Shown piece after piece: positions 2 to 30,882 of a DNA stretch of 32,000 bases. Under the pieces are notes generated by a model that saw only the letters and a list, made by a program, of their open reading frames with translations, was not told where the DNA came from and did not search any database. Source of the DNA: Candidatus Omnitrophota bacterium (GTDB lineage Bacteria; Omnitrophota; Gorgyraeia; Zapsychrales; JANLHA01); assembly GCA_963662715.1 (NCBI GenBank), contig OY759724.1, positions 1,980,001 to 2,012,000 of the forward strand, written 5' to 3'. Both the position numbers and the translations under genes were made by a program. The stretch's first letter is position 1. Each line of letters begins with the position of its first letter.

Positions 2-889
2 ATGGTGTTCGATTACAGCCCGCTGACCATTGACATCGTGGCCGCAAAGTACGACGCCAATACTTTAGTCGGTGTTGGCAGCCAGGATGACGACATTGAC
101 ATCTTCGGGATCAACGCGAACTGGGAATTAGGCGATGACTTGGGTACGGTCCTGGAAGGTTATTTCTGGAGCAAAATTGACCAGAGCGTTAAGGATGACG
201 CTATCGGGAATAAGGCGGACACCGTTTACATGCCTGGTATCCGTATGGAAACCAATCTTCTGGACGGCCTTTGGCTTTCCGGAGAACTGGCTTTTCAGTT
301 CGGTATCAAGTCCTACGGGGTTCAGGATATCGTTGCTGAACGCGAGGCTGCGGGCGCTCAGATCATTGCAAATTATATGGTTCCTTTTGAAAGCACAAAG
401 GCTTGGAGCCCGGTCCTGACAACAGCGTATAGCTATTACTCCGGGGACAGTGATCCATCTGACCTCACCGATGTCTATGAGGCCTGGGATCCGGTCCTGG
501 AAAATCAGGGTGGCGGAAAGATTTTCAACACCCTTTTTAATGCCACTAACTGTCACGTTGTAAAGGTTCGCGGAGCTATTGTTCCTATGGAAGATCTGAC
601 TGCGGCTTTTGAGTGGAACGGCTTGTGGTTAGATAAACCGTTAGCCGATACAGACGGAGACGGCCTGACATCTCTGACGTTGATGCAGCCGGATGACAAT
701 GACATCTCTGTATCAACAGATACGGATAAACATATCGGGGATGACCTTTCTCTCGAGTTGGTCTATGACTATACTGAAGATGTCAAGATCGGCGCGAGCT
801 ATGGATGGTTTTTCCCGGGAACAATGTTCACGTCTGACAATGATCAAGTGGCTTCCCAGTTAATGCTCAATGCGATTGTTAATTTCTAA
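2..889 (+). CDS. Outer-membrane beta-barrel protein, C-terminal part (porin/alginate-export-like); 5' end lies outside the window
   Basis: The ORF is open from the window edge. It is D/G/Y/W-rich with an alternating beta-strand pattern. It ends ...QLMLNAIVNF, with terminal Phe and alternating hydrophobics typical of a BAM beta-signal, and a strong terminator follows. Family assignment is by eye only. Confidence 0.55.
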   Translation: MVFDYSPLTIDIVAAKYDANTLVGVGSQDDDIDIFGINANWELGDDLGTVLEGYFWSKIDQSVKDDAIGNKADTVYMPGIRMETNLLDGLWLSGELAFQFGIKSYGVQDIVAEREAAGAQIIANYMVPFESTKAWSPVLTTAYSYYSGDSDPSDLTDVYEAWDPVLENQGGGKIFNTLFNATNCHVVKVRGAIVPMEDLTAAFEWNGLWLDKPLADTDGDGLTSLTLMQPDDNDISVSTDTDKHIGDDLSLELVYDYTEDVKIGASYGWFFPGTMFTSDNDQVASQLMLNAIVNF

Positions 890-920: not shown

Positions 921-954
921 AAGCCCCTGCTTAATTTAAGCAGGGGCTTTTTTG
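921..954 (+). terminator. Rho-independent terminator of the barrel gene
   Basis: AAGCCCCTGCTT (921-932) pairs perfectly with AAGCAGGGGCTT (938-949), giving a 12-bp GC-rich stem with a 5-nt loop. A T6 run follows at 948-953. Confidence 0.85.
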
Positions 955-1187
955 TCTGTGTCGTTGGGGCCGGGGAGAAATGTCGGAGGTGAACGGTGGC
1001 TTGGGAGATGTCGGGCAGCCACGGGGTGCGGCGTTCGGCAGGAGCTGTTATCGACCGGACGGGAGCAGAAAGACGTGAATTAGTCGGGGAAGATCATCCG
1101 TCCCCTCATGGATTATAAGTCCCGACGAGAATTTTTTCGCGACAGTGTTAAAAAAAACAAAATTATATTTTAAAAAGATTATTTATT

Positions 1188-1196
1188 TGTTATTAT
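1188..1196 (+). promoter_or_regulatory. Possible extended -10 promoter (TGtTATTAT) for the 1263-4129 operon
   Basis: TG at 1188-1189, one spacer base, then TATTAT at 1191-1196, inside an extremely AT-rich block (1141-1262). This is the same TGnTAT.. architecture seen at five other intergenic sites in the window. Confidence 0.3.
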
Positions 1197-1262: not shown

Positions 1263-1838
1263 ATGACCAGAGATGAAATTTATGACCATCTGGCTCAGGT
1301 ATACATAGGGAAAAAGAGTAAAAACGATAAGGAAAAGAAAAAACAGCTCAGCGCCTGGCTTGTTATTAACATTGTTATTACTGTTGTTATTTTTGCGAGC
1401 GCTTTTTATGGCTTTACGGCCTTTTTAACTCACCGGGGAGAATCTTTCGAAAACAAGGTGATCTATTCCCTGAATAAAGGTCCGTTGCGTGTTAATTATG
1501 ATCTGACATACCCATATCCTCCGGTCAAGACCTTTTCCTTAACAACCCCACATGTTAATGCCGGTAAGTACCAGAAATTGCAATTTGCCATCAGAGGATT
1601 GGAGGACGGATATCCCGGAATTGTCCGCATAGAAATCAAGAATGCCCGGAATGAAATATCTTCTGTCTTTGTCGACGGGGTCAACCTGGGGTGGAAACGT
1701 TTTGAAATCCCTTTTGCCGAGTTTGATAAAATTACCGATTGGACCAGTATTACCGAGGTGTCTTTTATCCTGGAATCGTGGAATACTGATAAACAAAAAG
1801 GAATTATCCTTATAGACGAAATTTGCTTTTCCAGCTAA
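1263..1838 (+). CDS. Single-pass membrane protein with C-terminal CIA30/CBM11-like beta-sandwich (putative carbohydrate-binding) domain
   Basis: AGAGGAAG RBS precedes the ATG. A Lys-rich N-terminus is followed by a TM segment (WLVINIVITVVIFASAFYGFTAFL). The C-terminal pattern LQFAIRG...VRIEIKN...WKRFEIPFAEF...VSFILES...ILIDEICF resembles CIA30/CBM11-type domains. Domain call is from memory. Confidence 0.7.
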   Translation: MTRDEIYDHLAQVYIGKKSKNDKEKKKQLSAWLVINIVITVVIFASAFYGFTAFLTHRGESFENKVIYSLNKGPLRVNYDLTYPYPPVKTFSLTTPHVNAGKYQKLQFAIRGLEDGYPGIVRIEIKNARNEISSVFVDGVNLGWKRFEIPFAEFDKITDWTSITEVSFILESWNTDKQKGIILIDEICFSS

Positions 1839-1856
1839 AAAGGAGGCTAATGTAAA

Positions 1857-3008
1857 ATGAGAATCATATCCATTGCGAATCAAAAAGGAGGATGTGGGAA
1901 AACCACGACGGCGATTAACCTCTCCTCGGCGCTGAGTCATAATAATAAAAGAACATTGTTGATTGACTTGGATCCGCAATCGCATGCGTCCCTGGGGTTG
2001 AATTTCGAGAACCAAGACAGCCTTTATAATGTGATTTCTAAACTGACGCCTCGTAAGCTGAAAATCCGTAATATTATAAAAAATGTCGACACGAATTTTG
2101 ATATCGTCCCTTCAAGCATTTTGGTCGGGACGCTTGAGCAGGAACTGGCCGATGAGATCGGGCGGGAGACAAAGATTCTGGAGATCATTAATGAAATTAA
2201 GGAAGACTATGACTACATTCTTATTGACTGTCCGCCAAGTCTCGGTATCCTAACCGTGAATTCCATCAGAGCCTCGGATGAGGTCATCATACCCGTCGAG
2301 ACAAGCCGTTTTTCCATGCAGGGGGTTGAGCATCTTATGGACATTATCCATCTGATCCGCGACCGGCTGAATCACCAGGTGGACTATAAAATATTGATCA
2401 CGATGTTCGATTCGCGTTTGAGACATTCATTTTCTATGATGTCAAGCATAAGAGAGAAGTTCAGGGATGTCTTGTGTGACACAATTGTGCATATTAACGT
2501 TAAGCTGAAAGAGTCGGCGGTTATGGGGCAGACCGTGACAGCGTACGATAAATACTGCCGTGGTTCCAAAGATTATTTCAGCCTGGCCAAAGAACTGATT
2601 GCCGCTGAACAGACGGTGGAGAATCCTGAGGCGGCCGTTTCTGCCGGGCGGGAGGTTCCTGCGGAGACAGCCGGCAGTGAAATTCCTCAGGCACTTTCAG
2701 AAAGAATGCAGGAAACGATCAGGGTCCATGCCGGAGAGATGTGCATGACGACATTTACACTCGCTGCTCCGGATGCCAGGTCTGTCTACGTTACGGGCAG
2801 TTTCAATGACTGGTCCTTGGATGAAAATTGCCGGATGCGCCTTGAAGGAGATTCTTGGGTCGTCAAGGTGCCTTTGCGCCCTGGAACCTATAAATATCAA
2901 TTTATTGTTGATGGCCGATGGAAAGAGGACCCGGCAAATCCCCGGCAAGAGCGGAATTCCTTTGGCGATATTAATTCCTTGCTAGAAGTGGTCCCGGTCA
3001 ATGCCTAG
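1857..3008 (+). CDS. ParA/MinD-family ATPase fused to a C-terminal CBM48 / AMPK-beta glycogen-binding domain
   Basis: AAGGAGG RBS. Deviant Walker A NQKGGCGKTT, DLDPQ, and Walker B ILIDCPPSLG. After a roughly 45-aa linker comes FTLAAPDARSVYVTGSFNDWS...WVVKVPLRPGTYKYQFIVDGRWKEDPANP, a classic AMPK1_CBM/CBM48 signature (about nt 2742-2990). Confidence 0.9.
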   Translation: MRIISIANQKGGCGKTTTAINLSSALSHNNKRTLLIDLDPQSHASLGLNFENQDSLYNVISKLTPRKLKIRNIIKNVDTNFDIVPSSILVGTLEQELADEIGRETKILEIINEIKEDYDYILIDCPPSLGILTVNSIRASDEVIIPVETSRFSMQGVEHLMDIIHLIRDRLNHQVDYKILITMFDSRLRHSFSMMSSIREKFRDVLCDTIVHINVKLKESAVMGQTVTAYDKYCRGSKDYFSLAKELIAAEQTVENPEAAVSAGREVPAETAGSEIPQALSERMQETIRVHAGEMCMTTFTLAAPDARSVYVTGSFNDWSLDENCRMRLEGDSWVVKVPLRPGTYKYQFIVDGRWKEDPANPRQERNSFGDINSLLEVVPVNA

Positions 3009-3324
3009 AAAGCAGGCCCTGAAAGAAGACCCCATTTCCGAAGGAAAGATTTTTGCCATTCTGGCCTATCTGTCGATACTCTGCATCATTCCCTTATTGT
3101 TTAAAAAAGATAATCAATTTGTTTTATCTCATGGGAAACAAGGACTCGTGTTATTTATCGGCGAGGTAGGTGTTTTTGTTCTCAGCATTATCTTCCCGTG
3201 GCTGTTGAGGATAGGTTTGTTTTGCCTGGGAATATATTCTTTTGTCGGGATCATTTCTGCTTTGCAGGGACGAACCATAAAACTTCCTTTTATCTCGCGT
3301 ATGGCAGAGAACATTACTCTTTAG
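3001..3324 (+). CDS. Small multi-pass membrane protein, DUF4870-like
   Basis: The start overlaps the ParA-CBM48 stop by 8 nt, suggesting translational coupling. ILAYLSILCIIPLLFKKDNQFVLSHGKQGLVLF resembles the DUF4870 AYL...HaKQ motif. There are two to three hydrophobic helices. Confidence 0.7.
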   Translation: MPRKQALKEDPISEGKIFAILAYLSILCIIPLLFKKDNQFVLSHGKQGLVLFIGEVGVFVLSIIFPWLLRIGLFCLGIYSFVGIISALQGRTIKLPFISRMAENITL

Positions 3325-3388
3325 CTGTTTTTCCGTTTCCTGTCCCTTCGTTTCTTATTAACATTAATATTATTTTCATTGAAATATT

Positions 3389-4129
3389 ATGCCTATAATA
3401 GAGAATATTATTTCCTTTTTCGAGAGAATGCTTGGGACCCCTCATCCCAAGAAAAAGAAACGAAGTTTGCCCAGGAATAAATCGGTAAGCCGCAGAAAAA
3501 CAACCCGGGCAAACGAAGGAGCCCGTAAGCCGGGACCGGGCCGGCTTTCTTCCCCTGGACAGCAAAGCCGGAAGCCTCAGGCAAAGAAGGGCGCTTCAGC
3601 GGCCAGGAAAGTCAAAAAGAAAGTTGTTGCAAAAGAAAAGGTCGCGGCGCGAACAAAACGATATAAAGGTGAAAATAAAAAGACCGGGACAGCCCCTTCA
3701 GTTAAAAAGAAGGCCGTCCATACGCCGAATAAGGCTCGGCAGAGCCCTGTTCGTGGCAGAGCCCTGCCTGAGGTAAAGAAAAAAAATTCTGGGAAGCCGG
3801 TAAAGCAAGCGCAAAAAAAAGTTAAAAGGCCTTCTGCGGGCAATGTGGGAGACAGGTGTGGTTCAGCGGCGATAGAGTTTGACCGGGTGGGGCAAGTAAC
3901 TCATTATTTTTCTAAAATTATGGTTTGTGTGGTTAGGGTTGAGGCGGCGGCCATCTCGCTGGGAGACCAAATTGTCATTAAAGGGAAGAAAACCAAGCTT
4001 TCTCAAAAGGTTCAGTCTCTTCAGGTTGAGAGTGTTGACGTGAAATCGGCCAAGAGAGGTCAACTGGTGGGCCTCAAAGTCGTCAGTCAGGTTTGTCCGG
4101 GTGATGTTGTCCAGAAAATAAGAAAATGA
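3389..4129 (+). CDS. Highly basic (histone-H1-like K/R/A/P-rich) protein with C-terminal EF-Tu-domain-2-like beta-barrel ('translation elongation factor-like protein' family)
   Basis: About 150 aa of KKK/RK low-complexity sequence. The C-terminus then reads GQVTHYFSKIMVCVVRVEAAAISLGDQIVIKGKKTKLSQKVQSLQVESVDVKSAKRGQLVGLKV, matching the small HYF.KI..AV..L...L..GD.I.I.G family from memory. The start codon is uncertain (an in-frame Met lies 13 codons in). Confidence 0.7.
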   Translation: MPIIENIISFFERMLGTPHPKKKKRSLPRNKSVSRRKTTRANEGARKPGPGRLSSPGQQSRKPQAKKGASAARKVKKKVVAKEKVAARTKRYKGENKKTGTAPSVKKKAVHTPNKARQSPVRGRALPEVKKKNSGKPVKQAQKKVKRPSAGNVGDRCGSAAIEFDRVGQVTHYFSKIMVCVVRVEAAAISLGDQIVIKGKKTKLSQKVQSLQVESVDVKSAKRGQLVGLKVVSQVCPGDVVQKIRK

Positions 4130-4216: not shown

Positions 4217-4244
4217 TTGACAGAAATATTCTTTTTGTTATAAT
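4217..4244 (+). promoter_or_regulatory. Near-consensus sigma70-type promoter (TTGACA-N16-TGtTATAAT) for the glycosylation island
   Basis: TTGACA at 4217-4222, a 16-nt spacer containing TG at 4236-4237, and TATAAT at 4239-4244. A direct repeat GTATCTATTT (4189-4198 and 4209-4218) abuts the -35. A roughly 250-nt leader precedes the ATG at 4496. Confidence 0.55.
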
Positions 4245-9636: not shown

Positions 9637-11298
9637 ATGAAAATTCAATTAAGAAAAATATCCCCTGGGGCTGTCTGTCACAATGAATGTTTCCCCGCTG
9701 TTCTGTTTGTGATCTTTTTTGTCTTGAGCTGGCTGTTCATGCAGCACACTTTCAGTTATAAAGACGATACATTTTTCCTGAGACATAAAGTCTGGAGCGA
9801 TTTCGGGGCGCATATCCCTCTCATCAGATCTTTTTCCATGGGAGATAATTTCTCCCTCGAACACCCCCTGTTCCCGGGAGACCGGATGCGCTATCATTTC
9901 CTTTTTTATTCCTGGGTCGGACTTCTTGAGCAATGGGGGCTTAATATCGCTGTGGCTCTTAACCTGCTCAGCGCCTTTGGTTTGGCTTTGTTGATGTGGC
10001 TCATCTTTCGTCTGAGTGAAAAGATGTTCACCAGCCGTTTAGCCGGGCTGCTCGCGGTCCTGCTTTTTCTTTTTAACGGATCCCTGTCCTGCCTGTTTTT
10101 CTTCCAGAAACATCCCTTGCACTGGAGTTCCTGGCAGGACATTATCACGGCAGACTCTTTTGCTTCGTTTGGGCCCTGGAACGGGATCGTAAGTATTTTC
10201 TGGACCCTGAATATCTACACCAATCAGCGGCATTTGGCTTTAAGTTATGCCGTGATCCTTTTATGTTTGTGGCCGCTGATGACCCTGGCTTTTGAAGGGA
10301 GAAAGATATCCTTAAGGAATAAGATCGCGATCGGCATGGTCGCGGCGCTTGCCCCGTTTCTTCATCATACGATTATCCCCGTTGTTTTTACATATGTTGT
10401 GATGTGGATGATATTTTGTCCCCGGATGGCAAGGGCCATAGGCCCTTATTATCTGTTCATGTTCCTTTGCGCGGTCCCGGCATTATGGTATATGAACGAC
10501 GGCTCTTCCGTTGATTTTGTCTATTCCCCGGGGTTTGTTCAGCAGCCCAAAAACTGGGTGGAGTGGGCGGAATACTGGATGTATAATCTGGGGCTTTATA
10601 CCGTTCTCATACCCTTTGTCTTTATATGGGCGAAGAAAGGGGGCCGCGTCTGGCTGGCTTCGTCTTTCATCCTTTTTATTGTCAGCAATATCTGGCGGTT
10701 TTCTCCGGACATGTTTAATAATCACAAGCTGATCAATTTCTTTATGATTTCTGTGCAGATTGTCGTTGCCGGATTTCTTGCGCAATGGCTGCGGAAACCC
10801 GGTCTTTTCCGGGCAGGAGCCGTGGCGTTTTTGCTGACTTTGACTTTTTCCGGAGTGATTGATTTTTTCCCGATCCTGAATGACGGCCGGGGGGCCCTGC
10901 GGGACTTCCGCAGATCGCCCGCAGCTGTCTGGATTCAGGAGAATACGTCTCCGCAGTCCGTGTATTTATGTACGAACGGGATGAACTCTCCCCCTTCGTT
11001 CCTGGGGCGCCGGATTTATATGGGGTACGTTTATTTTCCCTGGTCCGCCGGCTTTCCCGCCTATGAAAGACTCCGGGCGATTGAACCCGTTTTTCATGAG
11101 GATACGGACCAGGAATCGGTTTGCCGGCTGCTTCAGCAGGAGCATATCGATTATATTGTCGTCGAACCCGGCACCGATGCCTGGCCGGAGATCGATATCC
11201 ATGACAGTCTGTTATTAAAGACATGGACGCCAATCTTCAAAACAGATGATCGCTACAAGATTTATTCTGTCAAGGAGGAATGTGCTGAGACACGTTAA
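9637..11298 (+). CDS. Large polytopic membrane protein, GT-C-like glycosyltransferase candidate
   Basis: 553 aa with more than 10 hydrophobic helices. The first predicted loop is acidic (YKDDTFF...WSDFGAHIPLIRSFSMGDNFSLEHPLFPG). A roughly 120-aa soluble C-terminal domain follows. No family was recognised by eye. Confidence 0.7.
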   Translation: MKIQLRKISPGAVCHNECFPAVLFVIFFVLSWLFMQHTFSYKDDTFFLRHKVWSDFGAHIPLIRSFSMGDNFSLEHPLFPGDRMRYHFLFYSWVGLLEQWGLNIAVALNLLSAFGLALLMWLIFRLSEKMFTSRLAGLLAVLLFLFNGSLSCLFFFQKHPLHWSSWQDIITADSFASFGPWNGIVSIFWTLNIYTNQRHLALSYAVILLCLWPLMTLAFEGRKISLRNKIAIGMVAALAPFLHHTIIPVVFTYVVMWMIFCPRMARAIGPYYLFMFLCAVPALWYMNDGSSVDFVYSPGFVQQPKNWVEWAEYWMYNLGLYTVLIPFVFIWAKKGGRVWLASSFILFIVSNIWRFSPDMFNNHKLINFFMISVQIVVAGFLAQWLRKPGLFRAGAVAFLLTLTFSGVIDFFPILNDGRGALRDFRRSPAAVWIQENTSPQSVYLCTNGMNSPPSFLGRRIYMGYVYFPWSAGFPAYERLRAIEPVFHEDTDQESVCRLLQQEHIDYIVVEPGTDAWPEIDIHDSLLLKTWTPIFKTDDRYKIYSVKEECAETR

Positions 11299-11302
11299 TT
11301 TT

Positions 11303-13018
11303 ATGACAAGGAAACCATTTATAACAAGTCTTTGTCTGGCCGCTATTCTTCTTGCGGCGGCTGGCTTTCGTTTTGTCGGGATCAACTGGGATTACGGATA
11401 TCAGCAGCATCCCGATGAACGCATGCTGATGCTCGTTGCGAGCCGGATCCGGTTTTTTGACAAGCTTGACCCGGATTTTTTTAATTACGGAAGTTTTCCG
11501 GTTTATTGTGTGCGCGCCGTCGCTCAATTAAGCGATGCTTTGTTTCACACCCGGTGGGCCAATTATGACGGCATGCTCTTTGTCGGCCGGGTTTTGGTTT
11601 CCCTTCTTGACATCCTGATGGTTTATTGTGTCTATCGGCTGGCCGACAAGCTTTTCCGTGTCCCGAGGCTGTCCCTTTGCGCCGCGGCGTTTTATGCTTT
11701 AAGTTTTTTCCCTATCCAGAACAGCAATTTTTATATCGTTGATAACTTTGTAAACTTTTTCCTGACATTATTATGCGGCCTTCTTCTGCTGTATTTAAAA
11801 AAGGCCTCTTTAAGCAAGGTTGCCGGCCTGGCGGCCCTGTTCGCCGTTTTATTAGCAACAAAAGTGACTCCGGTGATTTATTTACCGGTCATTCTTTTAA
11901 TGCTGTTTTTTCAGGTCCGGGGTTTTCGGTGGCATCTTTTGCGTCCGTGGTACAGGCCGTTTCAGTACCAAGTGTTGTTTGTGTTGCTTTGTCTGGCCTG
12001 CCATTTTGTCCTCATGCCGTATGCCTATATCCGGTTTGATAAGTTCTGGAGTGATATCACCTTGCAGATGCAGATGAGCCGGGACCCTTATGTGTTCCCT
12101 TACACGCTGCAATACGTGGGGACAAAGCCTTACAGCTACTATTTTATCAATATGTTCTTCTGGGGGCTGGGCCCGATGCTGTCTTCGTTTTTCCTCCTGG
12201 GGCTTTTGTCGGTTTTTCTTCCGGGTGCGCAGCAGGCGAAAAGACAGGGACGAGTGTTTGTCTTCGTCCTGGTCTATGTTTTATGGAATTTTTATTATTT
12301 TGCCGTTTTGGGCCGGTCGGCGGTCAAGTTCATGCGCTATATGCTGCCTTTATATCCTTTCGCAGCCGTGATGGCGGCGGCGGGATTTGAATGGACCTTA
12401 AGCTTATTTAAAAGAAAAAAAATGCAGGGGCTTTATTTTGTTGCCGCCTTCGGGTTCATTTTCCTATGGACCGTCTGCTTTGTTGATATTTATTCGCGTC
12501 CTCTCACCAGGATTGAAGCCTCCAAGTGGATTAACCGGCACATCCCGGCCGGAGCTGTTTTAGCGGTGGAACACTGGGACGAACGTCTGCCGTTGTTCGG
12601 TGTTGACCGGTATGTTTTCGTAGAACTGCCGCTGTACGAATATCCGGACCAGGAGAGAAAGTGGGCGGGGATGAAAGATAAACTCCGGCAAGCCGATTAT
12701 ATTATTATCGCCTCACAAAAATTGTTTGTCCCTTTGCAGAAGCTGGGAAATTGTCAGGAGGTCGCAAGGTGCTATCCGAGAAGCGGGGATTATTACAGAA
12801 AGCTCTTTGCCGGGCAGCTGGGTTTTGAGAAAGTCGCTGAGTTTACCTCTTATCCGGGATTAACGGTTTTGGGCCGGCGGTTTGACTTTCCTGATGATCA
12901 GGCCGATGAATCCTTTTCCGTTTATGATCATCCGAGGGTTTATATTTTTCAAAAGAGGGGCTTTTCCCAATCCGAACGGCAGTATCCTTTTCCCGCGGAG
13001 TCACCGGGGCGGCAGTGA
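11303..13018 (+). CDS. GT-C glycosyltransferase, ArnT/PMT (GT39/GT83)-like
   Basis: I prefer ATG 11303, 5 nt after the upstream stop. The N-terminal TM is followed by GINWDYGYQQHPDERMLMLV, placing an acidic HPDE motif in the first extracytoplasmic loop as in GT-C enzymes. About 12 helices are followed by a roughly 170-aa C-terminal soluble domain. Confidence 0.75.
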   Translation: MTRKPFITSLCLAAILLAAAGFRFVGINWDYGYQQHPDERMLMLVASRIRFFDKLDPDFFNYGSFPVYCVRAVAQLSDALFHTRWANYDGMLFVGRVLVSLLDILMVYCVYRLADKLFRVPRLSLCAAAFYALSFFPIQNSNFYIVDNFVNFFLTLLCGLLLLYLKKASLSKVAGLAALFAVLLATKVTPVIYLPVILLMLFFQVRGFRWHLLRPWYRPFQYQVLFVLLCLACHFVLMPYAYIRFDKFWSDITLQMQMSRDPYVFPYTLQYVGTKPYSYYFINMFFWGLGPMLSSFFLLGLLSVFLPGAQQAKRQGRVFVFVLVYVLWNFYYFAVLGRSAVKFMRYMLPLYPFAAVMAAAGFEWTLSLFKRKKMQGLYFVAAFGFIFLWTVCFVDIYSRPLTRIEASKWINRHIPAGAVLAVEHWDERLPLFGVDRYVFVELPLYEYPDQERKWAGMKDKLRQADYIIIASQKLFVPLQKLGNCQEVARCYPRSGDYYRKLFAGQLGFEKVAEFTSYPGLTVLGRRFDFPDDQADESFSVYDHPRVYIFQKRGFSQSERQYPFPAESPGRQ

Positions 13019-13108
13019 CCCTGCTTGGGCGTGGGGGAGGAGAGACGAGCCGGAGAAGGACGCGTACTTTTAAAATAATGATTCTGTGCGTGGGCCAGGA
13101 TCAAAATA

Positions 13109-13117
13109 TGATATAAT
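13109..13117 (+). promoter_or_regulatory. Possible extended -10 promoter (TGaTATAAT)
   Basis: TG at 13109-13110 and TATAAT at 13112-13117, in the 200-bp AT-rich gap before 13220. There is no good -35, which is acceptable for extended -10 promoters. Confidence 0.4.
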
Positions 13118-13219
13118 TCCCTAAAATTAAGGAAGAATGCCGGATTCCTAAAATTTATAAATATTTAAAGGCCGTTTCCTTGTCCCGGGTCCTCTGAGGC
13201 CGCATGTGATTTCCTGTCC

Positions 13220-14926
13220 ATGGATACAAAAAATAATATGATATGTCCTCAAAACCGGTTTTCCCTGAACAGAAATTTTCTCCTTTTTATCGGTTTTTTT
13301 ATCTTGATTATTATTGAGTTCTGTGCCTACCAGTGGCAAGGCAAGCTGTCCTTCATCGCTTCAAGGCTTTGGCTGCTGCATGGGAGCTTTTATGTCCTCT
13401 GCAGTCTCGGTGTTATAGTCAAAACCTTGAAAAAAGATTTTCAGGAAAGAAATTTCCGCGGGCTGTTAATTTTTTTCCTCTTTGGTTTGGTCCTTTTTCA
13501 TACGGTGGGTTCCCGGGGAATAACCATAAATCACGAAAGCACGCAACAGGTGGCGGACGGCTGTGGTTTCTTTAAGCAGCCGGATTTCAGCTACACCAAA
13601 ATAGGTTTTCTGGGATATCCGGCCCGTCAATATCTGCTCCTGGCCCTTCCGTCCCTGATGTTCGGCCGGAGTCTCATAACTCTCCGGTTGCCTTATGCCG
13701 CAGCCTTTTTTCTTGGGGTGATGCTGTTTTATTGCGGACTTAACCGGTATTTTGACGAAAGGAAAACAGGCCGGACCCTGCTGGCCCCGTTTGTCACCCT
13801 GTCATTGCTGTGTTTCCCCGTCCTTGTCAGTATCCTGATTTCCTTTGAACAGGCTGTCCTGCCTTTATCCTTTACTTTGCAGGCGACGGGGTGGTTTTTA
13901 TTGTGTCTGAAAACGATAACCCGTCTGCGGGCTGTTTGTCTGGCGTTCATCGGCGCCTTGTTGGCGACGGCGTACACCCCCGGGCTCGCTTCATGGGGCC
14001 TGCTTATTGTCCTGCTGGGCGTTCAAATATGGCGTGAGGGCCGATTGAAGGATTTTAACTCAACGGTCCTTTGGATAAATGTCCTGTTATTCGCTGGTCT
14101 TGTCGGAGCATTTTCGTTCTTTACGCGTATCGATCTGTTTTCCCGGGAGAGCGGATTATGGATTCCCCATTATTTGATAGGCCCCTATTTGTTGGATGTC
14201 TTCAAGGCTCTTTTTATCCCTTTCGAACAGGCCTTTCTTCCTGTTCCCGTCGTTATTTATTTCATGTTATCCTTAATGTCTGTATTCCGTCGCCGGGATT
14301 TTGCCGTATCTCTCTGGGCGATGCTGACAATTTTTCTGGCCACGCAGCTGGGAGGATTTGCCAAACCGGCACCCCCTTACAGCCTGCACAGGGCCCTGGT
14401 GATCATTCCGCCGCTTTTGACCTCTATGGCCTTGACCATAGAGTCCTGGGTGGCGGATAAAGGTGTCAGAGTGTTGAAAAGGGTCGTTTTTTTCGCCCTG
14501 TGCCTGGGGGTTTTGTTTGCCGGCAAGAATTTGTACGAAAGTTTAAAACTTTGCCGCAGCGGTCCCCGGGATGTCGTGATATTTAATGTCCTGGATGCGG
14601 TCGAGGAGTTCGGGGTTGATAAGTCCGGTAAAATGAGGATTCTTGTCGCTCCCGGCAATTTAAATTATAGCAACCTTTATGACTGCTTCAGATATTTTCT
14701 GCCGAAGTCCGAATTCTTATGGCACCCGACCACCGTTGGTAAGCTTGAGAATATGGATGCCCCTGCTTTTGTTTATCTTGATAGACCGGAGTGGCGTGCA
14801 GGAATTATGGACATGATGAAGGGAGGGCAGGGCCATTATGCCATCATTAGATTTCATTATGATAATAAAGAGATACAATTTCTCAGAATTATTTGCGTCT
14901 CGGAGAAAAACAAAGACAGAAAATGA
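13220..14926 (+). CDS. Large polytopic membrane protein, GT-C-like glycosyltransferase candidate
   Basis: 568 aa with many helices. IGFLGYPARQYLLLALPSLMFG resembles the ArnT-type first-loop/helix region. A C-terminal soluble domain of about 150 aa follows. Assignment is tentative. Confidence 0.7.
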   Translation: MDTKNNMICPQNRFSLNRNFLLFIGFFILIIIEFCAYQWQGKLSFIASRLWLLHGSFYVLCSLGVIVKTLKKDFQERNFRGLLIFFLFGLVLFHTVGSRGITINHESTQQVADGCGFFKQPDFSYTKIGFLGYPARQYLLLALPSLMFGRSLITLRLPYAAAFFLGVMLFYCGLNRYFDERKTGRTLLAPFVTLSLLCFPVLVSILISFEQAVLPLSFTLQATGWFLLCLKTITRLRAVCLAFIGALLATAYTPGLASWGLLIVLLGVQIWREGRLKDFNSTVLWINVLLFAGLVGAFSFFTRIDLFSRESGLWIPHYLIGPYLLDVFKALFIPFEQAFLPVPVVIYFMLSLMSVFRRRDFAVSLWAMLTIFLATQLGGFAKPAPPYSLHRALVIIPPLLTSMALTIESWVADKGVRVLKRVVFFALCLGVLFAGKNLYESLKLCRSGPRDVVIFNVLDAVEEFGVDKSGKMRILVAPGNLNYSNLYDCFRYFLPKSEFLWHPTTVGKLENMDAPAFVYLDRPEWRAGIMDMMKGGQGHYAIIRFHYDNKEIQFLRIICVSEKNKDRK

Positions 14927-14956
14927 TTCCGCTGCCATGAATTTCCTGGGGGTTCT

Positions 14957-16555
14957 ATGACCCGGCTATTTATCAGTTTCCCAATGTTCCGCGGTGTTTT
15001 TCTGGGTGTGCTTCTGTCTCTGTTGTGCATCCTGAAGAAGGAATGCTTTGTCCGTATTCAGCTAATAAGAAAGATTCTTCTTGCGGCCCTTGCTTATTTA
15101 GCCATCCCTTCTCTGTTGTTTTGTTTTTCTTTGCCTCTCCCGCTTCCTCATCGCAGCGCGCTTTGTCTTCTGGTCATGTACTGCTTCTTTTCTTCCGTCC
15201 GGAAAATTAAGAACCACAGAACTTTCCCGCCGTGTGATTACGAATATAAAATAAGGCTCGATTTTTTCCTCATGGGTATTTTGTTATTGGCGTTGAATCA
15301 AGGGGCTATCTTTTTTGACCTCAGTGTGGTGGGGGACTGGCATAAACATCGCAGTGTTTTGATGAGCCTGTACGAGAATCCCTGGGACCCCTTGTTATGT
15401 ACAGGCTTTGATTGCTCCGCCCAGGTCGCTCCGGGCATGCATCTGGTTTATTATTACGCCATGTATCTTCCCGGCGTGTACGTTTGCAAATTGTTGGGAG
15501 GAATGGTTTCGTCTTTGGCCGGGCCGTCCCTTTGGAGTATCCTGTCGGTGTCTTTCCTGATCTGGAATCTTTTGGGGATGATGATTGTTTTTCTCCTGTT
15601 GCCTGTCGTGTGTCAGGTCCTGTTTAAAACAAAAGACAGGGTGTCCTGGGGGATTTTTTATCCTGTCTTAATATTTTTCGCGGGCATGGATTATTGGTTC
15701 ATCTGGATTCACAAGAAAACCTGGCTGATCGGTCATGCCGAATGGGGGGCGACGGCCTATAATGCGCAGATGAGTTCTTTTATCAGTATGTGGTCATGGG
15801 TCCCTCATCAGCTTGTTGTCGGGTTCTTAGGGATATCCCTGCTGATCTTGTTCAGCCGGAATTTTTCTTTGTTCCCTTTCTGTTTGTGGACTGTTTTCCT
15901 GCTGTCCGGGGCCAGTCTGGCCTGGATCGGCAGCATTCCGATATTGGTTTATTTTCTTGTCGTCCGGTTCCTGGACATCCGTCAGGAATTGTCCTGGGGC
16001 TGTCTGCGGAATATTTTTGCCGCGAACCTGATAAACATCCTGGCCGGACTTTTTATAACGATGACCATTTTTCTGTTTTACAGCACGAAGGTGGAGGCCG
16101 AGGGATTTGATATCTTATTAAAGAGGACAACGGTGGGGGATTTCCTGCTGTTTCATTTTATCGAATTTTATCCGACGTTTATGCTGGTTGTCGCGTATCG
16201 TCTGTTGCGCCGGACTGTCCCGCCCATTCTAGGGTTTTTATTCGGATGGATTGTCTTTATTGCCATGTTTCACGGCGGCAACTGGAATGATCTGGTGATG
16301 CGGGGAAGCCTGCCGGCGTTGTCTGTTATTATGATTTTCTGTGCTTATGCCGTTCAGGCCGTGATTCAGAAAAAACGGACCGCATCCCTTATTTTAGTGC
16401 TGCTTGTGCTCCTGCTGACCTTCCCTTTATTTTTAAATGAATATTTTGTCGCTTTGGAGGGGATGCATCCTCAGCTGGAGGAAGGCTACGCTGTTTATAT
16501 GCAGTATGCCGGAGACGGCCGTGTCCGGGGGGTTTGGAAACTGTTTAACCTGTAA
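14957..16555 (+). CDS. Large polytopic membrane protein (GT-C-like or polymerase-like), function unresolved
   Basis: 532 aa, almost entirely hydrophobic helices, with one loop reading VVGDWHKHRSVLMSLYENPWDP. No soluble domain is evident. It lies 30 nt after the previous gene on the same strand. Confidence 0.7.
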   Translation: MTRLFISFPMFRGVFLGVLLSLLCILKKECFVRIQLIRKILLAALAYLAIPSLLFCFSLPLPLPHRSALCLLVMYCFFSSVRKIKNHRTFPPCDYEYKIRLDFFLMGILLLALNQGAIFFDLSVVGDWHKHRSVLMSLYENPWDPLLCTGFDCSAQVAPGMHLVYYYAMYLPGVYVCKLLGGMVSSLAGPSLWSILSVSFLIWNLLGMMIVFLLLPVVCQVLFKTKDRVSWGIFYPVLIFFAGMDYWFIWIHKKTWLIGHAEWGATAYNAQMSSFISMWSWVPHQLVVGFLGISLLILFSRNFSLFPFCLWTVFLLSGASLAWIGSIPILVYFLVVRFLDIRQELSWGCLRNIFAANLINILAGLFITMTIFLFYSTKVEAEGFDILLKRTTVGDFLLFHFIEFYPTFMLVVAYRLLRRTVPPILGFLFGWIVFIAMFHGGNWNDLVMRGSLPALSVIMIFCAYAVQAVIQKKRTASLILVLLVLLLTFPLFLNEYFVALEGMHPQLEEGYAVYMQYAGDGRVRGVWKLFNL

Positions 16556-16621
16556 TGTGCTCCCCTTGCGGTGCAGAACCCTGAGATTGAAATCTGATGA
16601 GCGGGAGGTTGAAATCAACGC

Positions 16622-17659
16622 TCACATGAATTTTTTCACCAGCCCCAAAAGCCCTTGCTTCCAGGCCGCTGTGTGGGTGATCCCTGCTTTACGGCTTTTG
16701 ATGTCCTGATAATTCTCCAAATACCAGGCATAGGTCTTGATAAGAATCTGTGCGTTGGAATAGCGCGGGGACCATTTCAGGGTGTTTTTAAGTTTGTCAA
16801 TGGAGACATAGGAATCTTTATCCGCGGTATCGTAAACCCATTGATAAAGAGGAGAGAGCCGGATAGCTTCCAGGAAACGCAAGAAACCTTTAATTGTGTT
16901 CGCTGAAGTGGGGAAGAGGGTGGAGCCCGATTCCGCAAAATGGAATAAGGCTTCCAGGTCATCCTGGACCGTGCTGAATTTTTCTGCCGCGACATTAAAG
17001 ACGTCGTTGAACGCTGCGTCCTGTTTCTGAACAAAAAGCGCGATGACGTCAACCAGATCATCGACCGCCAAAAGCTGGTAGGAGTTCTGTCCGTCTCCGA
17101 TAACCGGAATCTTCTTGCCGTCATGCACCCAGTCAAAAAGGATTTCAAAGACGCCCAGCCGGCCGGTGCCTAAAAATGTCTTTGGCCGTAAAATCGTTAC
17201 GTTAAGGCCTTTTTTTATATATCCAAGACACAGTTCTTCTGCGGCGATTTTGGATTCGCCGTAAGGCCCGACGCCCATTAACCGGTCGCTTTCTAGAATG
17301 GGATGTTTTTCCGGAATGCCGTAGACAGCCGTCGAAGAGATATAAATCACTCTCTGAACATGGTGGGTATGCGCGGCATCCAGGATGTATTTTGTCCCGC
17401 TGACATTGGTGGAAAAAATATCCGCTTTTTTCCAGAGGGGGAGCGCCGCAGCGGCATGAATAACGATATCCATCCCTCTGACAAGCTCCGGGATGTTTTC
17501 TTCCTGCCGGATATCCCTGCGGATAAAACGGCAGGATTTTTTTAAAGGATTGTCGACCGAAGCGATATCCACCAGCGTGAGTTTATGATTTTGTTTAAGC
17601 AGGGAATGCGCACAGTGTGTGCCCAGGAAACCGGCTGCGCCTGTAATGAGAATATTCAT
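16622..17659 (-). CDS. NAD-dependent epimerase/dehydratase (extended SDR)
   Basis: MNILITGAAGFLGTH (GxxGxxG) and the YGESK catalytic YxxxK motif; 345 aa. It is the only minus-strand gene in the island. Confidence 0.9.
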   Translation of the reverse strand: MNILITGAAGFLGTHCAHSLLKQNHKLTLVDIASVDNPLKKSCRFIRRDIRQEENIPELVRGMDIVIHAAAALPLWKKADIFSTNVSGTKYILDAAHTHHVQRVIYISSTAVYGIPEKHPILESDRLMGVGPYGESKIAAEELCLGYIKKGLNVTILRPKTFLGTGRLGVFEILFDWVHDGKKIPVIGDGQNSYQLLAVDDLVDVIALFVQKQDAAFNDVFNVAAEKFSTVQDDLEALFHFAESGSTLFPTSANTIKGFLRFLEAIRLSPLYQWVYDTADKDSYVSIDKLKNTLKWSPRYSNAQILIKTYAWYLENYQDIKSRKAGITHTAAWKQGLLGLVKKFM

Positions 17660-17725
17660 GGAGGCCCCTTCTTTAAAAATGAGAGAAAAAAGATATTTTT
17701 GTTCCGTTCAGGAAATTAGTGTTTT

Positions 17726-17734
17726 ATTATATCA
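17726..17734 (-). promoter_or_regulatory. Possible extended -10 promoter (TGaTATAAT on the minus strand) for the SDR gene
   Basis: The reverse complement of 17726-17734 reads TGATATAAT, identical to the element at 13109-13117. It lies about 67 nt upstream of the start codon at 17659. Confidence 0.4.
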
Positions 17735-17789
17735 CAGAGGAAAAGTCTTCCCAAAAGCCAAACGAGGTAATTTGTCGGTTAAAAAATAA

Positions 17790-19889
17790 ATGAATCCTAT
17801 CCTGATAAATTTAGGTCTTATCGTTTTTGCCTGGTTCATGACGCTCATTCTTCAGCTGTTCGCTGTCCCGGTGATCGTCGTGAAGCTCCGGAACGTGTTG
17901 TTCGACGCCGGATGGGCTTTCGGCCGGCTGGTGTCCTGGTTAAGCCTTGGCCTGCCGATATGGTTTTTAGCCCATTTCCAATGCCCTGTGAATAATCAGC
18001 CCGGGCTGTTTATCGTTTTTTTCCTTTGGGCGGCTTTGAGCTGGAGAACTTTTCATAAGAATAAGGATGAAATAGTGCTTTATCTGCAGGAAAAGTGGCC
18101 CTGGCTCCTTGCAGAAGAAGTTGTTTTCGCGTTTGGCTTTTTCTTTTTCAGCCTCATGCGGGGTTTTGCTCCTGATATCCTTGATTTAGAGAAGTTCATG
18201 GACATGGGCCTGATGGCCTCTTATCTCCGCGCTGACACTTTCCCGGTTTTGGATATGTGGTTTGCCGGAGAAACCATGAACTATTATACATTCGGGCATT
18301 TTTTGGGTTCCATCATGACGAGGTTCTGGTCGGTGCCTTTACATTACAGCTATAATTTATTATTGGGCCTTGTGTTCGGCCTGACAATGGTCCACAGCTT
18401 TGGTTTTGTTTTGAACCTTTTACAGAGAAGCGGGGATGAAACAGCCCCGCCCCTGGGCCCGCTGGTCTGGGGAGGGGCTGTCGGGGCTTTTTTGATTGTT
18501 TTTGCCGGGAACAGCCATGCGATTTGGTACGGGATCAAAAACCACGGCTGGCAGGGATATTGGTATCCGGACGCGACGCGATTTATTCCCTACACGATTC
18601 ATGAATTCCCGGCGTATTCATTTATTGTCAGTGACCTGCATGCCCATGTCTGGAATTTCCCCCTGGTGATCGCCTTATTGACAGCGATTTTTTTGTGGTA
18701 CCGCGCGGTATTGATTTCCGAACAGCCGAGACGGATTTATCTTCGGGCTTTTTTTGTGAGTTTGATGTTCAGCATCTGTTTTATGACCAGCGCCTGGGAC
18801 GGGGGTATCTATGCGCTACTTTTAGGTGTTTGCGGAGTGAGCCTGCTGATGTTTTATCCGAAACGTTTCCGGCATATTGCCGCTTCTCTGGGGCTCATGG
18901 GGTGTCTGTCGGCCTTGATTTCTTCAGCCTGGTGGTTGCATTTCCGTCCTATTTCCGAAGGGGTCGGGATAGTGGAAACCAGTACTCATTTCTGGCAAAT
19001 GTTGATTGTCTGGGGCGGGTTAGGCCTCGGGAGTTTTTTGGCTTTCAGCATCGCTGACCATCAAAACAGACATTTGATTTATATGGCCCATGTCGTTAAA
19101 AGAAGAAAGCAGGCTGTCTTAGGTCTTGTGATGGCGCTTATTGCGGCGGCCTGGATTCTCATATTGCTCCCGGAACTTATTTATGTCAAAGACATTTATC
19201 CGAATCATCCCCGGGCCAACACGATGTTTAAATTTACTCTGCAGAGCTATATCTTTATGTGCCTCTCAACAGGCTGGGCTTCGGGTTTTATTTGGCTGAA
19301 AGAGTTTCTGCCGCATAATAAATACCGCTTATGGATCAGGGGTTTTTTGTCATTCGTTCTTATTGTTGTTGTTTCTTCGCTTTTAATTTATCCGTATTTC
19401 GGCTATCGGGACAGATACGGTCAGTTGAAAAATTTTAAAGGACTCGACGGATTAACCTGGCTTAAAGAAAAATATCCTGATGATTATGCGGCTGTCTTAT
19501 GGCTGAATCAAAATGTCTCCGGACAGGCTGTTATATTAGAGGCGGTGGGCACCAGCTATTCTGAATTCAGCCGGATATCGGCTTTTACCGGCCTTCCGAC
19601 GGTCGTTGGCTGGCCGGTCCATGAATGGTTGTGGCGGGGTTCATACGATATCCCGGGTTCACGCATCGAAGAAGTCAGGAGGATGTACGAGAACCCGGTC
19701 TCTTATAATTCGGCCATGTCTTTTGAAAAGTACCTGGTGGATTATATATTTGTGGGAGCCAAGGAGCGGGAGGCCTATCCTGAGCTTAAAGAAAGGCAGC
19801 TCCGGGCGTTAGGAAAGGTGATTTTTGAACAGGGAGACACGTTGGTCGTTAAACGTAATATAAGCCCTGCGATGTATCCGATTTATTAA
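17790..19889 (+). CDS. DUF2298 (Chlor_Arch_YYY) family large membrane protein, GT-C-like
   Basis: DLEKFMDMGLMASYLRADTFPVLDMWFAGETMNYYTFGHF matches the DUF2298 signature (EKpMD...fPP.DpWfaG..inYYYfG) from memory. 699 aa, polytopic, with a C-terminal soluble domain. Confidence 0.85.
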   Translation: MNPILINLGLIVFAWFMTLILQLFAVPVIVVKLRNVLFDAGWAFGRLVSWLSLGLPIWFLAHFQCPVNNQPGLFIVFFLWAALSWRTFHKNKDEIVLYLQEKWPWLLAEEVVFAFGFFFFSLMRGFAPDILDLEKFMDMGLMASYLRADTFPVLDMWFAGETMNYYTFGHFLGSIMTRFWSVPLHYSYNLLLGLVFGLTMVHSFGFVLNLLQRSGDETAPPLGPLVWGGAVGAFLIVFAGNSHAIWYGIKNHGWQGYWYPDATRFIPYTIHEFPAYSFIVSDLHAHVWNFPLVIALLTAIFLWYRAVLISEQPRRIYLRAFFVSLMFSICFMTSAWDGGIYALLLGVCGVSLLMFYPKRFRHIAASLGLMGCLSALISSAWWLHFRPISEGVGIVETSTHFWQMLIVWGGLGLGSFLAFSIADHQNRHLIYMAHVVKRRKQAVLGLVMALIAAAWILILLPELIYVKDIYPNHPRANTMFKFTLQSYIFMCLSTGWASGFIWLKEFLPHNKYRLWIRGFLSFVLIVVVSSLLIYPYFGYRDRYGQLKNFKGLDGLTWLKEKYPDDYAAVLWLNQNVSGQAVILEAVGTSYSEFSRISAFTGLPTVVGWPVHEWLWRGSYDIPGSRIEEVRRMYENPVSYNSAMSFEKYLVDYIFVGAKEREAYPELKERQLRALGKVIFEQGDTLVVKRNISPAMYPIY

Positions 19890-19914
19890 TTATTTTTTGT
19901 CGGGGAGGGGAATT

Positions 19915-20352
19915 ATGAAAAGAATAACTAAGATGACCAGAGATGAAAAAAATTTGTATAAACGGTATCTTCTTTGGTGTTATAAGACGACCCGCGAATC
20001 CCTGGAAAGGATTGACAGGAAATTTACGCAGTTGGATATCGATAAGTTTGTCTATGACGATATCTGCAAATGTCCTGAACTGCGAGACAAGTCTAAAGAG
20101 AAAAAATATCAAGGGAAACTTGTTGAATTTAAGCAGTATATAACGCATAAAGAGAAAAGTGCTTATGTTGAAAAATTTGAACGGGGCAAGATCCCGGAGT
20201 TAAAAGCAGATTACTGGTATTGGGATAAACGATTAAAAGCCATTAAAAAAGCCGTAAGACATTTCTTGGGGGCAAGAGCTTTAACCCAAATTGAGCGAGC
20301 TTATGAAGAGGAAATGGAGCGGCGTATTTTGGCGGCACGGGAGCATTCCTGA
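19915..20352 (+). CDS. Hypothetical cytoplasmic, highly charged helical protein
   Basis: GGGGAGGGG RBS 5 nt before ATG 19915, preferred over the track's TTG 19897. No TM segment and no recognisable motif. Confidence 0.65.
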   Translation: MKRITKMTRDEKNLYKRYLLWCYKTTRESLERIDRKFTQLDIDKFVYDDICKCPELRDKSKEKKYQGKLVEFKQYITHKEKSAYVEKFERGKIPELKADYWYWDKRLKAIKKAVRHFLGARALTQIERAYEEEMERRILAAREHS

Positions 20353-20465
20353 AAAAATATTTTAACAATGGACGTTTTAATTTGTTTGTTATTTTGTAAA
20401 TTATTGCAATTAAATATTTTACGGCTAGACAATTTGTTAAGACTTCTTCAATTCAGATAAAAATA

Positions 20466-20474
20466 TGTTATAAT
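20466..20474 (+). promoter_or_regulatory. Extended -10 promoter (TGtTATAAT) immediately upstream of the small pilin-like gene
   Basis: TG at 20466-20467 and TATAAT at 20469-20474. A weak -35, TTCAAT, lies at 20447-20452 (16-nt spacer). The ATG at 20483 is only 8 nt past the -10, implying a leaderless mRNA or use of ATG 20495. Confidence 0.45.
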
Positions 20475-20482
20475 ATAACTAA

Positions 20483-20722: not shown

Positions 20723-20803
20723 TCCGTATCCTTTTATTCCCGTAGAATTTTACACTGCCTTTTTACATAATAATACTTTTGAGAGCAGGCTTTTATCCTT
20801 ATT

Positions 20804-20826
20804 AGGCCTTATAAAGGCCTTGTGTT
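20804..20826 (+). terminator. Weak hairpin, possible terminator after the small pilin-like gene
   Basis: AGGCCTT (20804-20810) pairs with AAGGCCT (20814-20820), followed by TGTGTTTG. The stem is short, the loop tiny and the U-tract imperfect. Confidence 0.25.
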
Positions 20827-20999: not shown

Positions 21000-21041
21000 A
21001 ATATTAAATTATCTCTATAAAAATTGATACTTCATTAAACC

Positions 21042-26217: not shown

Positions 26218-26226
26218 GGTTAATAC

Positions 26227-30880: not shown

Positions 30881-30882
30881 GC

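Follow-up and report, generated by a model that had tools for sequence, protein, structure and literature searches.

We analysed a window of 32,000 nucleotides (nt) from the genome of a Candidatus Omnitrophota bacterium (assembly GCA_963662715.1, contig OY759724.1, positions 1,980,001 to 2,012,000 of the forward strand), in which the open reading frame (ORF) at 1857..3008, + strand, codes for a ParA-type ATPase covalently joined to a carbohydrate-binding module (CBM) of the CBM48/AMPK-beta type. The protein, which we call ParA-CBM48, is encoded in a conserved four-gene operon that defines three further Omnitrophota-specific, uncharacterised protein families. The combination of domains, its conservation throughout the phylum and the operon of three lineage-specific partners appear undescribed, each part by itself being familiar. 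Together they suggest an undescribed link between nucleoid and glycogen in Omnitrophota. The reading that we favour, with a probability of roughly 0.4, is that ParA-CBM48 acts as an ATP-cycled tether between the nucleoid and glycogen particles.

ParA-CBM48 is a genuine two-domain protein

The window has one ORF at exactly these coordinates, of 383 amino acids (aa), with an ATG start preceded by a strong Shine-Dalgarno sequence, AAAGGAGG. The translation contains the motifs KGGCGKTT, DLDPQ, IDCPPS, YVTGSFNDWS and YKYQFIVDGRWKEDPANP. Pfam placed AAA_31 on residues 1-175 (185.8 bits, cutoff 27) and AMPK1_CBM on residues 306-380 (58.2 bits, curated cutoff 26.8), with additional matches to CbiA (63.2 bits) and CBM_48 (25.7 bits, cutoff 22.4). 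A sequence search of the PDB divided the protein in the same manner, into a ParA part (residues 2-249) and an AMPK-beta CBM part (residues ~306-378). In an AlphaFold2 model built with 47 homologues as input (mean predicted local distance difference test score, pLDDT, 72.8), a ParA core is followed by a disordered stretch (262-280), a helix (282-292) and a beta-sandwich (296-378). The initial annotation had described an intact ParA-type module joined to an AMPK-beta-type module; all the motifs that it quoted are there, and the Pfam, PDB and fold searches agree with it.

The fusion was found at all of 81 loci that we fetched with about 10 kb on each side of the gene (1.23 Mb in total) and searched by tblastn with the proteins of the window; it was essentially full length at 80 loci and was represented by a partial match (query 133-378) at the remaining one. 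The 120 best database homologues, 63-100% identical over 99% coverage, all have the same two-domain architecture, and all carry PF16561. Because these homologues and the 81 loci share the fusion, an assembly or frameshift artefact is ruled out. We saw no signal peptide when the sequence was read by eye, which places the CBM48 module on the cytoplasmic side; glycogen is the obvious alpha-glucan available to it there.

Between the two domains lies an Ala/Glu/Pro-rich flexible linker (2622..2693, + strand; residues 256-279), conserved in neither sequence nor length. Residue conservation was counted over 78 full-length ParA-CBM48 sequences, in which the linker varies from 9 to 80 aa and consists of 17% A, 16.5% E and 10.9% P; in the model, pLDDT falls below 50 at residues 262-280. 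The linker of about 45 aa noted at first is thus genuine. It is followed by a semi-conserved helix (LSERMQ..., 2694..2738, + strand; residues 280-294) with a mean pairwise identity of 39.7%, in which S281 and M284 are nearly invariant. Mean pairwise identity is 75.7% for the ATPase, 67.1% for the CBM and 13.6% for the linker, indicating strong purifying constraint on both domains, with the linker acting as a flexible tether.

The ATPase half belongs to a diverged branch of the Soj-like clade

The ATPase domain (1857..2621, + strand; residues 1-255) was identified as ParA/Soj-type by Pfam, NCBIfam, PDB and Foldseek searches and by alignment. Its closest PDB sequence is Myxococcus xanthus ParA (8RAY, 167.9 bits); Soj from Thermus thermophilus (1WCV) and Soj from Helicobacter pylori (6IUB) match at about 128-130 bits. 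Foldseek ranked Soj/ParA structures at the top for the model (9A6N, 8RAY, 2BEK and 6IUB; E 1e-21 to 1e-19, target template-modelling score about 0.8; for the very best, E about 1e-21 and score about 0.82). The signature Lys of the deviant Walker A motif, K10, as well as K15, D37/D39 and the Walker B residue D124, are invariant in 78/78 sequences. By its P-loop signature and Soj/MinD-type fold the ATPase half belongs to the ParA/MinD superfamily. Other identities within this superfamily were tried and rejected. MinD scored 58.3 (TIGR01968, cutoff 212.9), and the C-terminus is the CBM, with no membrane-targeting helix. BcsQ scored 69.3 (TIGR03371, cutoff 157.85) and ranked 36th by fold, at 18% identity, and no bcs genes occur in the conserved block. 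For the BY-kinase, plasmid RepA/SopA/PrgP and NifH/Mrp families the NCBIfam scores were far under cutoff, and the fold ranking favours Soj.

Functional residues of M. xanthus ParA (PMC12462528) were transferred to the family by HMMER alignment. The position of the DNA-binding Arg, R238, is occupied by K216, an invariant Lys that preserves the charge. Of the six positions that form the pocket for the ParB peptide (V116, L150, L152, L155, L187 and L192 in M. xanthus), five are still hydrophobic (L129, I/F131, V/I134, L166 and L171), V116 being replaced by Q95; G130 also lies in the pocket stretch. The site at which the central Arg/Lys of the ParB peptide docks is kept at two of its four residues: Y57 and E96, both invariant, correspond to Y81 and E117, which are termed invariant among the four (PMC12462528), whereas E82 and D110 are invariantly changed, to N58 and L89. 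In M. xanthus ParA, little or no ParB-stimulated ATPase activity is left after the substitution E82A or D110R (PMC12462528). We expect that dimerisation, DNA binding and switching by a partner peptide have very probably been retained in the family.

Its place within the chromosomal Soj/ParA clade, by sequence as well as by fold, raises the possibility that ParA-CBM48 is a glycogen-gated ParA of the cell cycle. It would then control segregation, replication or division, with the CBM48 module as an AMPK-style sensor tuning ATPase cycling or localisation, and glycogen would not be a cargo. We consider this unlikely, even though the ancestral gene order puts the operon upstream of rpsO-pnp-ftsK-rodZ, and some homologues bear the name 'chromosome partitioning protein' given by the Joint Genome Institute (JGI). 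The AMPK-beta CBM is also known to sense glycogen (PMC2642990), and parB (K03497) appears in the KEGG Orthology (KO) lists of at least two Omnitrophota genomes (supplement of PMC10066038). However, parB was never adjacent to ParA-CBM48 at the 81 loci: tblastn detected no ParB-like gene within 10 kb in the window or at the loci, with a Bacillus subtilis Spo0J sequence as the query, and the parS consensus, allowing up to two mismatches, did not occur in the 1.23 Mb of loci. Furthermore, identity of the ATPase half to either M. xanthus ParA or T. thermophilus Soj is only about 37%, against 53% between these two, which come from different phyla, and the ATPase half scores 114.3 against the NCBIfam ParA_partition model NF041546, below the cutoff of 180. 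Because of this low identity, the sub-cutoff score, the two changed docking residues and the lack of a nearby parB or parS, the ATPase half is best read as a diverged branch of the Soj-like clade and not as a standard ParABS ParA.

The weak NCBIfam similarity to the RepA, SopA and PrgP families could also be taken to indicate a partition ATPase of a plasmid or mobile element with an incidental extra domain. This is extremely improbable: none of the plasmid families comes anywhere near its cutoff, there is no neighbouring gene for ParB or a centromere-binding protein, and the gene lies on a 3.36-Mb contig in a chromosomal synteny with rpsO-pnp-ftsK-rodZ that is conserved in many species, which excludes a plasmid origin.

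The CBM48 module keeps the aromatic platform

The CBM48/AMPK-beta-type module, together with a short tail and the stop codon, occupies 2739..3008 on the + strand (residues 295-380) and was delimited by the AMPK1_CBM match and by alignment to 1Z0N. This structure, of the AMPK beta1/beta2 CBM, is the closest PDB sequence for the C-terminal half (E 9e-10). We take the sugar platform of rat AMPK beta1 to consist of W100, K126, W133, L146, G147 and N150, following the structure of the AMPK CBM with cyclodextrin; the list of ligand contacts reportedly goes back to Polekhina et al. 2005. In our family, both stacking tryptophans (W319 for W100, W355 for W133) as well as G370 (G147) and N373 (N150) are invariant. 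The position of K126 is occupied by an invariant Gln, Q348, that of L146 by F369 in 76/78 sequences and that of T148 by D371 in 77/78. The stacking Trp/Lys residues to which the initial annotation had drawn attention are therefore conserved as regards the two tryptophans and not as regards the Lys. As judged by alignment, the family retains an intact aromatic platform, with a change in one polar contact.

The nearest relatives of the module outside the fusions are tandem CBM48 arrays, some of them with GH13 or GH57 alpha-glucan enzymes. One relative is fused to a GH13 alpha-amylase (P0122) and another to GH57 (P0234), and a third is named 'glycogen-binding domain-containing protein' (P0124). 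In a search with the CBM alone against 1.84 billion cluster representatives, the fusions fell into few tight clusters at 60-73% identity, and the top matches that were not fusions carried 2-19 tandem copies of CBM48 at about 30-45% identity. Giant proteins with 16-19 tandem CBM48/AMPK1_CBM repeats led the CBM matches (P0121, 1812 aa; P0148, 6207 aa; P0256, 5928 aa), the first of them from Candidatus Epulopiscium viviparus, a giant bacterium. The conserved sugar platform and these relatives suggest that the CBM48 module may bind alpha-1,4/1,6-glucan.

The replacement of K126 by Gln and of L146 by Phe is also what might be seen if the domain no longer bound sugar and served in protein-protein contacts or oligomerisation, in the way that the AMPK-beta CBM docks on the kinase domain. 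The surface motif ERNSFGDINS of the beta-sandwich, conserved beyond what sugar binding alone would need, and the lack of genomic linkage to glg genes at the 81 loci are consistent with this idea. It nevertheless seems to us quite improbable, since both stacking tryptophans, N373 and G370 are invariant, the domain lies well above the Pfam cutoffs and its closest relatives are found within alpha-glucan enzymes.

The family is widespread in Omnitrophota

We scanned one genome per GTDB species with the family peptides H[IVT]NVKLKE and TGSFNDWS. At least 362 GTDB species genomes encode a relative, and the best 80 of the 362 are all metagenome-assembled genomes (MAGs) of Omnitrophota; some of these 80, which stem from a single series of bulk submissions, have 'uncultured Planctomycetales' as a placeholder label. 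The phylum counts about 705-714 species representatives (bioRxiv 10.64898/2026.06.07.730766). Since most of these are incomplete MAGs, 362 genomes against about 705-714 species suggest that the gene is close to core in Omnitrophota. The architecture, whose spread the initial annotation had proposed to examine, is thus that of a recurrent family. Where the 120 best homologues have a name in the databases, it is generic: 'AAA family ATPase [Candidatus Omnitrophota]', 'hypothetical protein' or, as mentioned, 'chromosome partitioning protein'. The literature yielded no publication on a ParA with a CBM48 module, on a ParA-type system for glycogen or on such a protein in Omnitrophota, in keeping with the earlier remark that no system of this kind had been characterised.

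A conserved operon encodes three lineage-specific partners

At the 81 loci, ParA-CBM48 is part of a co-directional block with fixed offsets, which consists of a porin gene, a gene for a 191-aa protein, ParA-CBM48, a DUF4870 gene and a gene for a Lys-rich protein. The median gaps between the last four genes are 23, -8 and 15 nt, and that after the porin gene is 289 nt. In the window, the porin gene is followed by an intrinsic-terminator-like hairpin with a 13-bp stem and a T-run (921..949, + strand), and a sigma-70 consensus promoter with a perfect 12/12 match (4217-4244) opens the next unit. These two signals delimit the operon to 1263-4129. A promoter-like site, TTTAAA-16-TATTAT with TG (1169..1196, + strand), lies upstream of it and is a weak match to the consensus.

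The first gene of the operon (1263..1838, + strand) codes for a 191-aa single-pass membrane protein, characterised by tblastn, alignment and AlphaFold2. It was present at 73/73 loci with room for it, at the median distance of 23 nt from ParA-CBM48. Its family (450 matches) is found only in Omnitrophota, has a near-constant length and is annotated as 'hypothetical'. A near-invariant N-terminal peptide, MTRDEIYDHLAxVYxGK, is followed by a basic stretch, a transmembrane helix and a C-terminal beta-jelly-roll; by the positive-inside rule, the peptide would be cytoplasmic and the C-terminal domain would face outward. The model has a pLDDT of 83.7 (about 90 for the C-terminal domain), and Foldseek gave CBM11 (E 3e-8), CBM30, CBM28 and CBM4 as the best matches, in addition to weak Pfam matches to CBM_11, MAM and CIA30. 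The third gene (3001..3324, + strand), whose start overlaps the ParA-CBM48 stop by 8 nt, codes for a 107-aa membrane protein of the DUF4870/MamF_MmsF family with three hydrophobic segments, as seen by eye. The PF09685 match is weak (19.7 bits), and the counterpart at locus L001 was also flagged PF09685. A DUF4870-like gene was found at 71/78 loci with room.

The fourth gene (3389..4129, + strand; tblastn, alignment and Pfam), present at 68 loci, codes for a 246-aa Lys/Arg-rich protein. This protein begins with an amphipathic peptide, continues with a basic disordered region (32% K+R) and has at its C-terminus a beta-barrel of the EF-Tu-domain-2/IF2 type. Across the family, which is confined to Omnitrophota (936 matches), the disordered region has 24-136 residues, 23-51% of them K+R, and is almost devoid of acidic residues. 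GTP_EFTU_D2 was matched by 15/17 members (best E 7.7e-9), and the best PDB profile match of the barrel is eIF5B (E 0.01). Members of the family (P0394-P0513) are repeatedly mis-named 'translation initiation factor IF-2' by JGI, and gene callers often shorten them to the C-terminal part of 79-147 aa.

The N-termini of the Lys-rich proteins match the pattern h-x-[KR]-x-h-x-x-h-h, which has the spacing of ParB's ParA-binding motif, L11-x-R13-x-L15-x-x-L18-I19, in 42% of sequences, whereas its frequency is 7% in shuffled N-termini and 10% in the complete set of ORFs at the loci; because the Lys-rich sequences are related, this enrichment is suggestive and is not to be read as a probability. The N-terminal peptide of the 191-aa protein was considered as a ParB-like activator in the same way and rejected, as the pattern occurred in 0% of its sequences. 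The Lys-rich protein is therefore our candidate for a ParA partner or activator. It had been proposed initially that fusion to a CBM dispenses with a ParB/McdB-type adaptor. The tight phylum-wide operon, the partner-peptide pocket that has been kept and the ParB-like peptide on the Lys-rich protein speak against this; with a conserved candidate activator encoded two genes downstream, the adaptor-free scheme is unsupported.

It also seems possible that the operon identifies the cargo, and that ParA-CBM48 positions or regulates an envelope complex made of the CBM11-like 191-aa protein and the DUF4870 protein, perhaps with the Alginate_exp porin, in the manner of BcsQ, FlhG or ParC. The ligand of the CBM48 module would then be a glucan intermediate in the cytoplasm or a glycan primer. 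The fixed spacing of the partners across the phylum fits the rule that cargo is encoded next door, the 191-aa protein combines a near-invariant cytoplasmic peptide with an extracytoplasmic fold of glycan-binding type, the outer-membrane neighbour is itself conserved, and ParA/MinD relatives such as BcsQ, to which the ATPase half has a Pfam match (CBP_BcsQ, 48.6 bits), act on polysaccharide secretion machines. We nonetheless doubt this explanation. The conserved block contains no glycosyltransferase or synthase, GT2 and UbiA genes occurring downstream only in the four closest genomes, and the strong terminator sets the porin gene apart. Membership of the BcsQ and MinD families fails as described above, and the 191-aa protein lacks the ParB-like pattern. 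Finally, CBM48 modules are typically specific for alpha-glucans, and nothing indicates an exported alpha-glucan polymer.

A possible ATP-cycled tether between nucleoid and glycogen

ATP-bound ParA-CBM48 would be expected to form a sandwich dimer, since its deviant Walker A, A' and B motifs are intact. This dimer may bind nucleoid DNA non-specifically through K216, an invariant Lys where Soj/ParA have their DNA-binding Arg, and through neighbouring basic residues. Given the conserved sugar platform, the dimer would display two CBM48 modules on flexible tethers, able to grip glycogen particles. A partner peptide entering the pocket at the dimer interface would fire ATP hydrolysis; the most probable such peptide is the N-terminus of the Lys-rich protein, the basic tail of which may lie on DNA or another polyanion. 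The monomers would then release DNA and remain on glycogen. Repeated cycling could spread glycogen over the nucleoid, or tether it there, so that it is passed on to both daughter cells. As the cargo is permanently attached to the ATPase, we envisage a tether-and-release or hitch-hiking scheme and not a classical diffusion ratchet. The fuller proposal, in which the built-in module couples glycogen to the nucleoid with the help of two membrane proteins and of a Lys-rich activator that is specific to the phylum, is put forward with somewhat greater reserve.

ParA-type positioning systems are usually encoded beside the genes for their cargo. This and several further considerations weigh against the tether. 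No glg or other glycogen-metabolism gene was found within 10 kb of ParA-CBM48 at any of the 81 loci, and the proteins encoded by its conserved neighbours are of the membrane or envelope type. The Lys of the AMPK sugar platform is an invariant Gln. A ParA that is covalently fixed to its cargo cannot run the classical diffusion ratchet, in which an activator sitting on the cargo removes ParA from the area below it. Moreover, most Omnitrophota are reported to be ultra-small cells (PMC10066038), and in such cells active spacing of granules may matter little. As to the polymer, glycogen synthesis genes were reported in 9/12 Omnitrophota genera of Ace Lake (PMC8542988), and the KO lists in the supplement of PMC10066038, apparently compiled per genome, record the presence of glgC, glgA, glgB and glgP for at least two genomes.

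Genomic surroundings

Upstream of the operon, the 3' part of a gene for an outer-membrane beta-barrel of the Alginate_exp family lies at 2..889 (+ strand). By tblastn this gene was found at 62/81 loci, where its median offset is -1811 nt. Full-length counterparts have about 470 aa; the one at L011:7146-8555 matches PF13372 at 43.4 bits (cutoff 25.2), and PF13372 is also carried by that of L001, with 462 aa. In view of the strong terminator at 921..949, the porin gene is transcribed separately in spite of the conserved synteny.

Downstream, about 20 kb between the operon and rpsO (4217-24493) are taken up by an island for the biosynthesis of envelope glycans. Its genes code for UbiA, two GT2, GDSL-like, amine oxidase, PMT_2-like, DUF2298, epimerase and spermidine-synthase-like membrane proteins. 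The UbiA, GT2 and GDSL genes were considered as part of the system and rejected, since among the 81 loci they occur only in the four closest genomes; the island is an insertion. Over 10001-24000, AT skew is strongly negative (down to -0.30), whereas the operon and the pnp/ftsK region have values near zero; this would fit membrane-protein genes rich in T or an island of foreign origin. The genes rpsO-pnp-ftsK-rodZ follow at 25948-31731 in the window and within a few kb after the block in most genomes.

Just upstream of rpsO, at 25418-25807, a gene codes for a coiled-coil protein of 129 aa whose C-terminal tail is rich in Lys. It is kept at the same relative place in 14 fetched loci; no family match was found for the protein, whose architecture recalls the granule- and nucleoid-binding PhaM/PhaF type. 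At 38 loci, the Lys-rich gene is followed by a conserved gene for a protein of about 141 aa that matched no Pfam family, some +2260 nt from the ParA-CBM48 start (e.g. L049:5698-6120), of which no counterpart was found in the window; the gene at 25418 was rejected as that counterpart and belongs to a different, loosely linked family. At one locus only, a second, distant ParA/MinD-like gene, 26% identical to the ATPase half, lies directly downstream of the block (L046:11688-12272).

Relation to known systems and significance

ParA/MinD ATPases are the general bacterial means of placing chromosomes, plasmids, carboxysomes, chemoreceptor arrays and division sites. The closest comparison is with the chromosomal ParA/Soj proteins (8RAY, 1WCV/2BEK and 6IUB), with which ParA-CBM48 shares the fold, the deviant Walker A motif with its signature Lys, the A' and B motifs, the basic character of the DNA-binding position, the hydrophobic partner pocket and the equivalents of Y81 and E117. 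It differs from them in its C-terminal CBM48 module, in the lack of an adjacent parB or parS and in having Asn and Leu for E82 and D110. The McdA/McdB, PomZ/PomXY, PpfA and ParC systems employ ParA/MinD-family ATPases for cargo other than DNA, with a small basic or disordered partner encoded beside. ParA-CBM48 resembles these in being a presumably nucleoid-bound ParA/MinD-family ATPase with a partner of that kind next to it, but the sequence match of its ATPase half to McdA is weak (56 bits), the predicted cargo-binding module is on the ATPase instead of on the adaptor, and the operon does not lie beside genes for the proposed cargo. Its partner families, specific to Omnitrophota, are unrelated to McdB or PomX by any search that we ran.

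With the AMPK-beta CBM, the plant PTST family and yeast Atg45, ParA-CBM48 has in common the CBM48 fold, the stacking tryptophans and the equivalents of Asn150 and Gly147. These are non-enzymatic proteins in which CBM48 serves to couple another activity to glycogen or starch (PMC2642990, PMC6322578 and PMC11145338). Here, the coupled activity is that of a bacterial P-loop positioning ATPase, and K126 and L146 are replaced by Gln and Phe. BcsQ likewise ties a ParA/MinD fold to polysaccharide biology, but it is separated from ParA-CBM48 by family score, fold rank and the absence of bcsA/B/R/E neighbours. PhaM and PhaF, on polyhydroxybutyrate granules, and AlgP, on polyphosphate granules, attach their granules to the nucleoid for inheritance and have Lys-rich, histone-H1-like tails. 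The Lys-rich protein of the operon has such a Lys-rich tail, although there is no sequence relationship and PhaM, PhaF and AlgP come with neither an ATPase nor a CBM.

We know of no ParA/MinD system that reaches its cargo other than through a separate adaptor, and found none described in the literature for the positioning of glycogen. If the nucleoid-glycogen tether is real, it would be the first ParA/MinD system for a polysaccharide storage granule and the first with the cargo-binding module inside the ATPase. A ParA with a covalent alpha-glucan module, present throughout a phylum, would represent both a new class of cargo and a new wiring, with the ATPase fixed to the cargo and the activator supplied in trans, and this wiring would challenge the standard diffusion-ratchet picture. 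Alternatively, the protein could represent a bacterial equivalent of the way in which AMPK senses glycogen, linked to the cell cycle. ParA-CBM48 and its operon offer a testable handle on the almost unknown cell biology of Omnitrophota, and the tether, if borne out, would belong to the core cell biology of an entire phylum, whose members are ultra-small and host-dependent.

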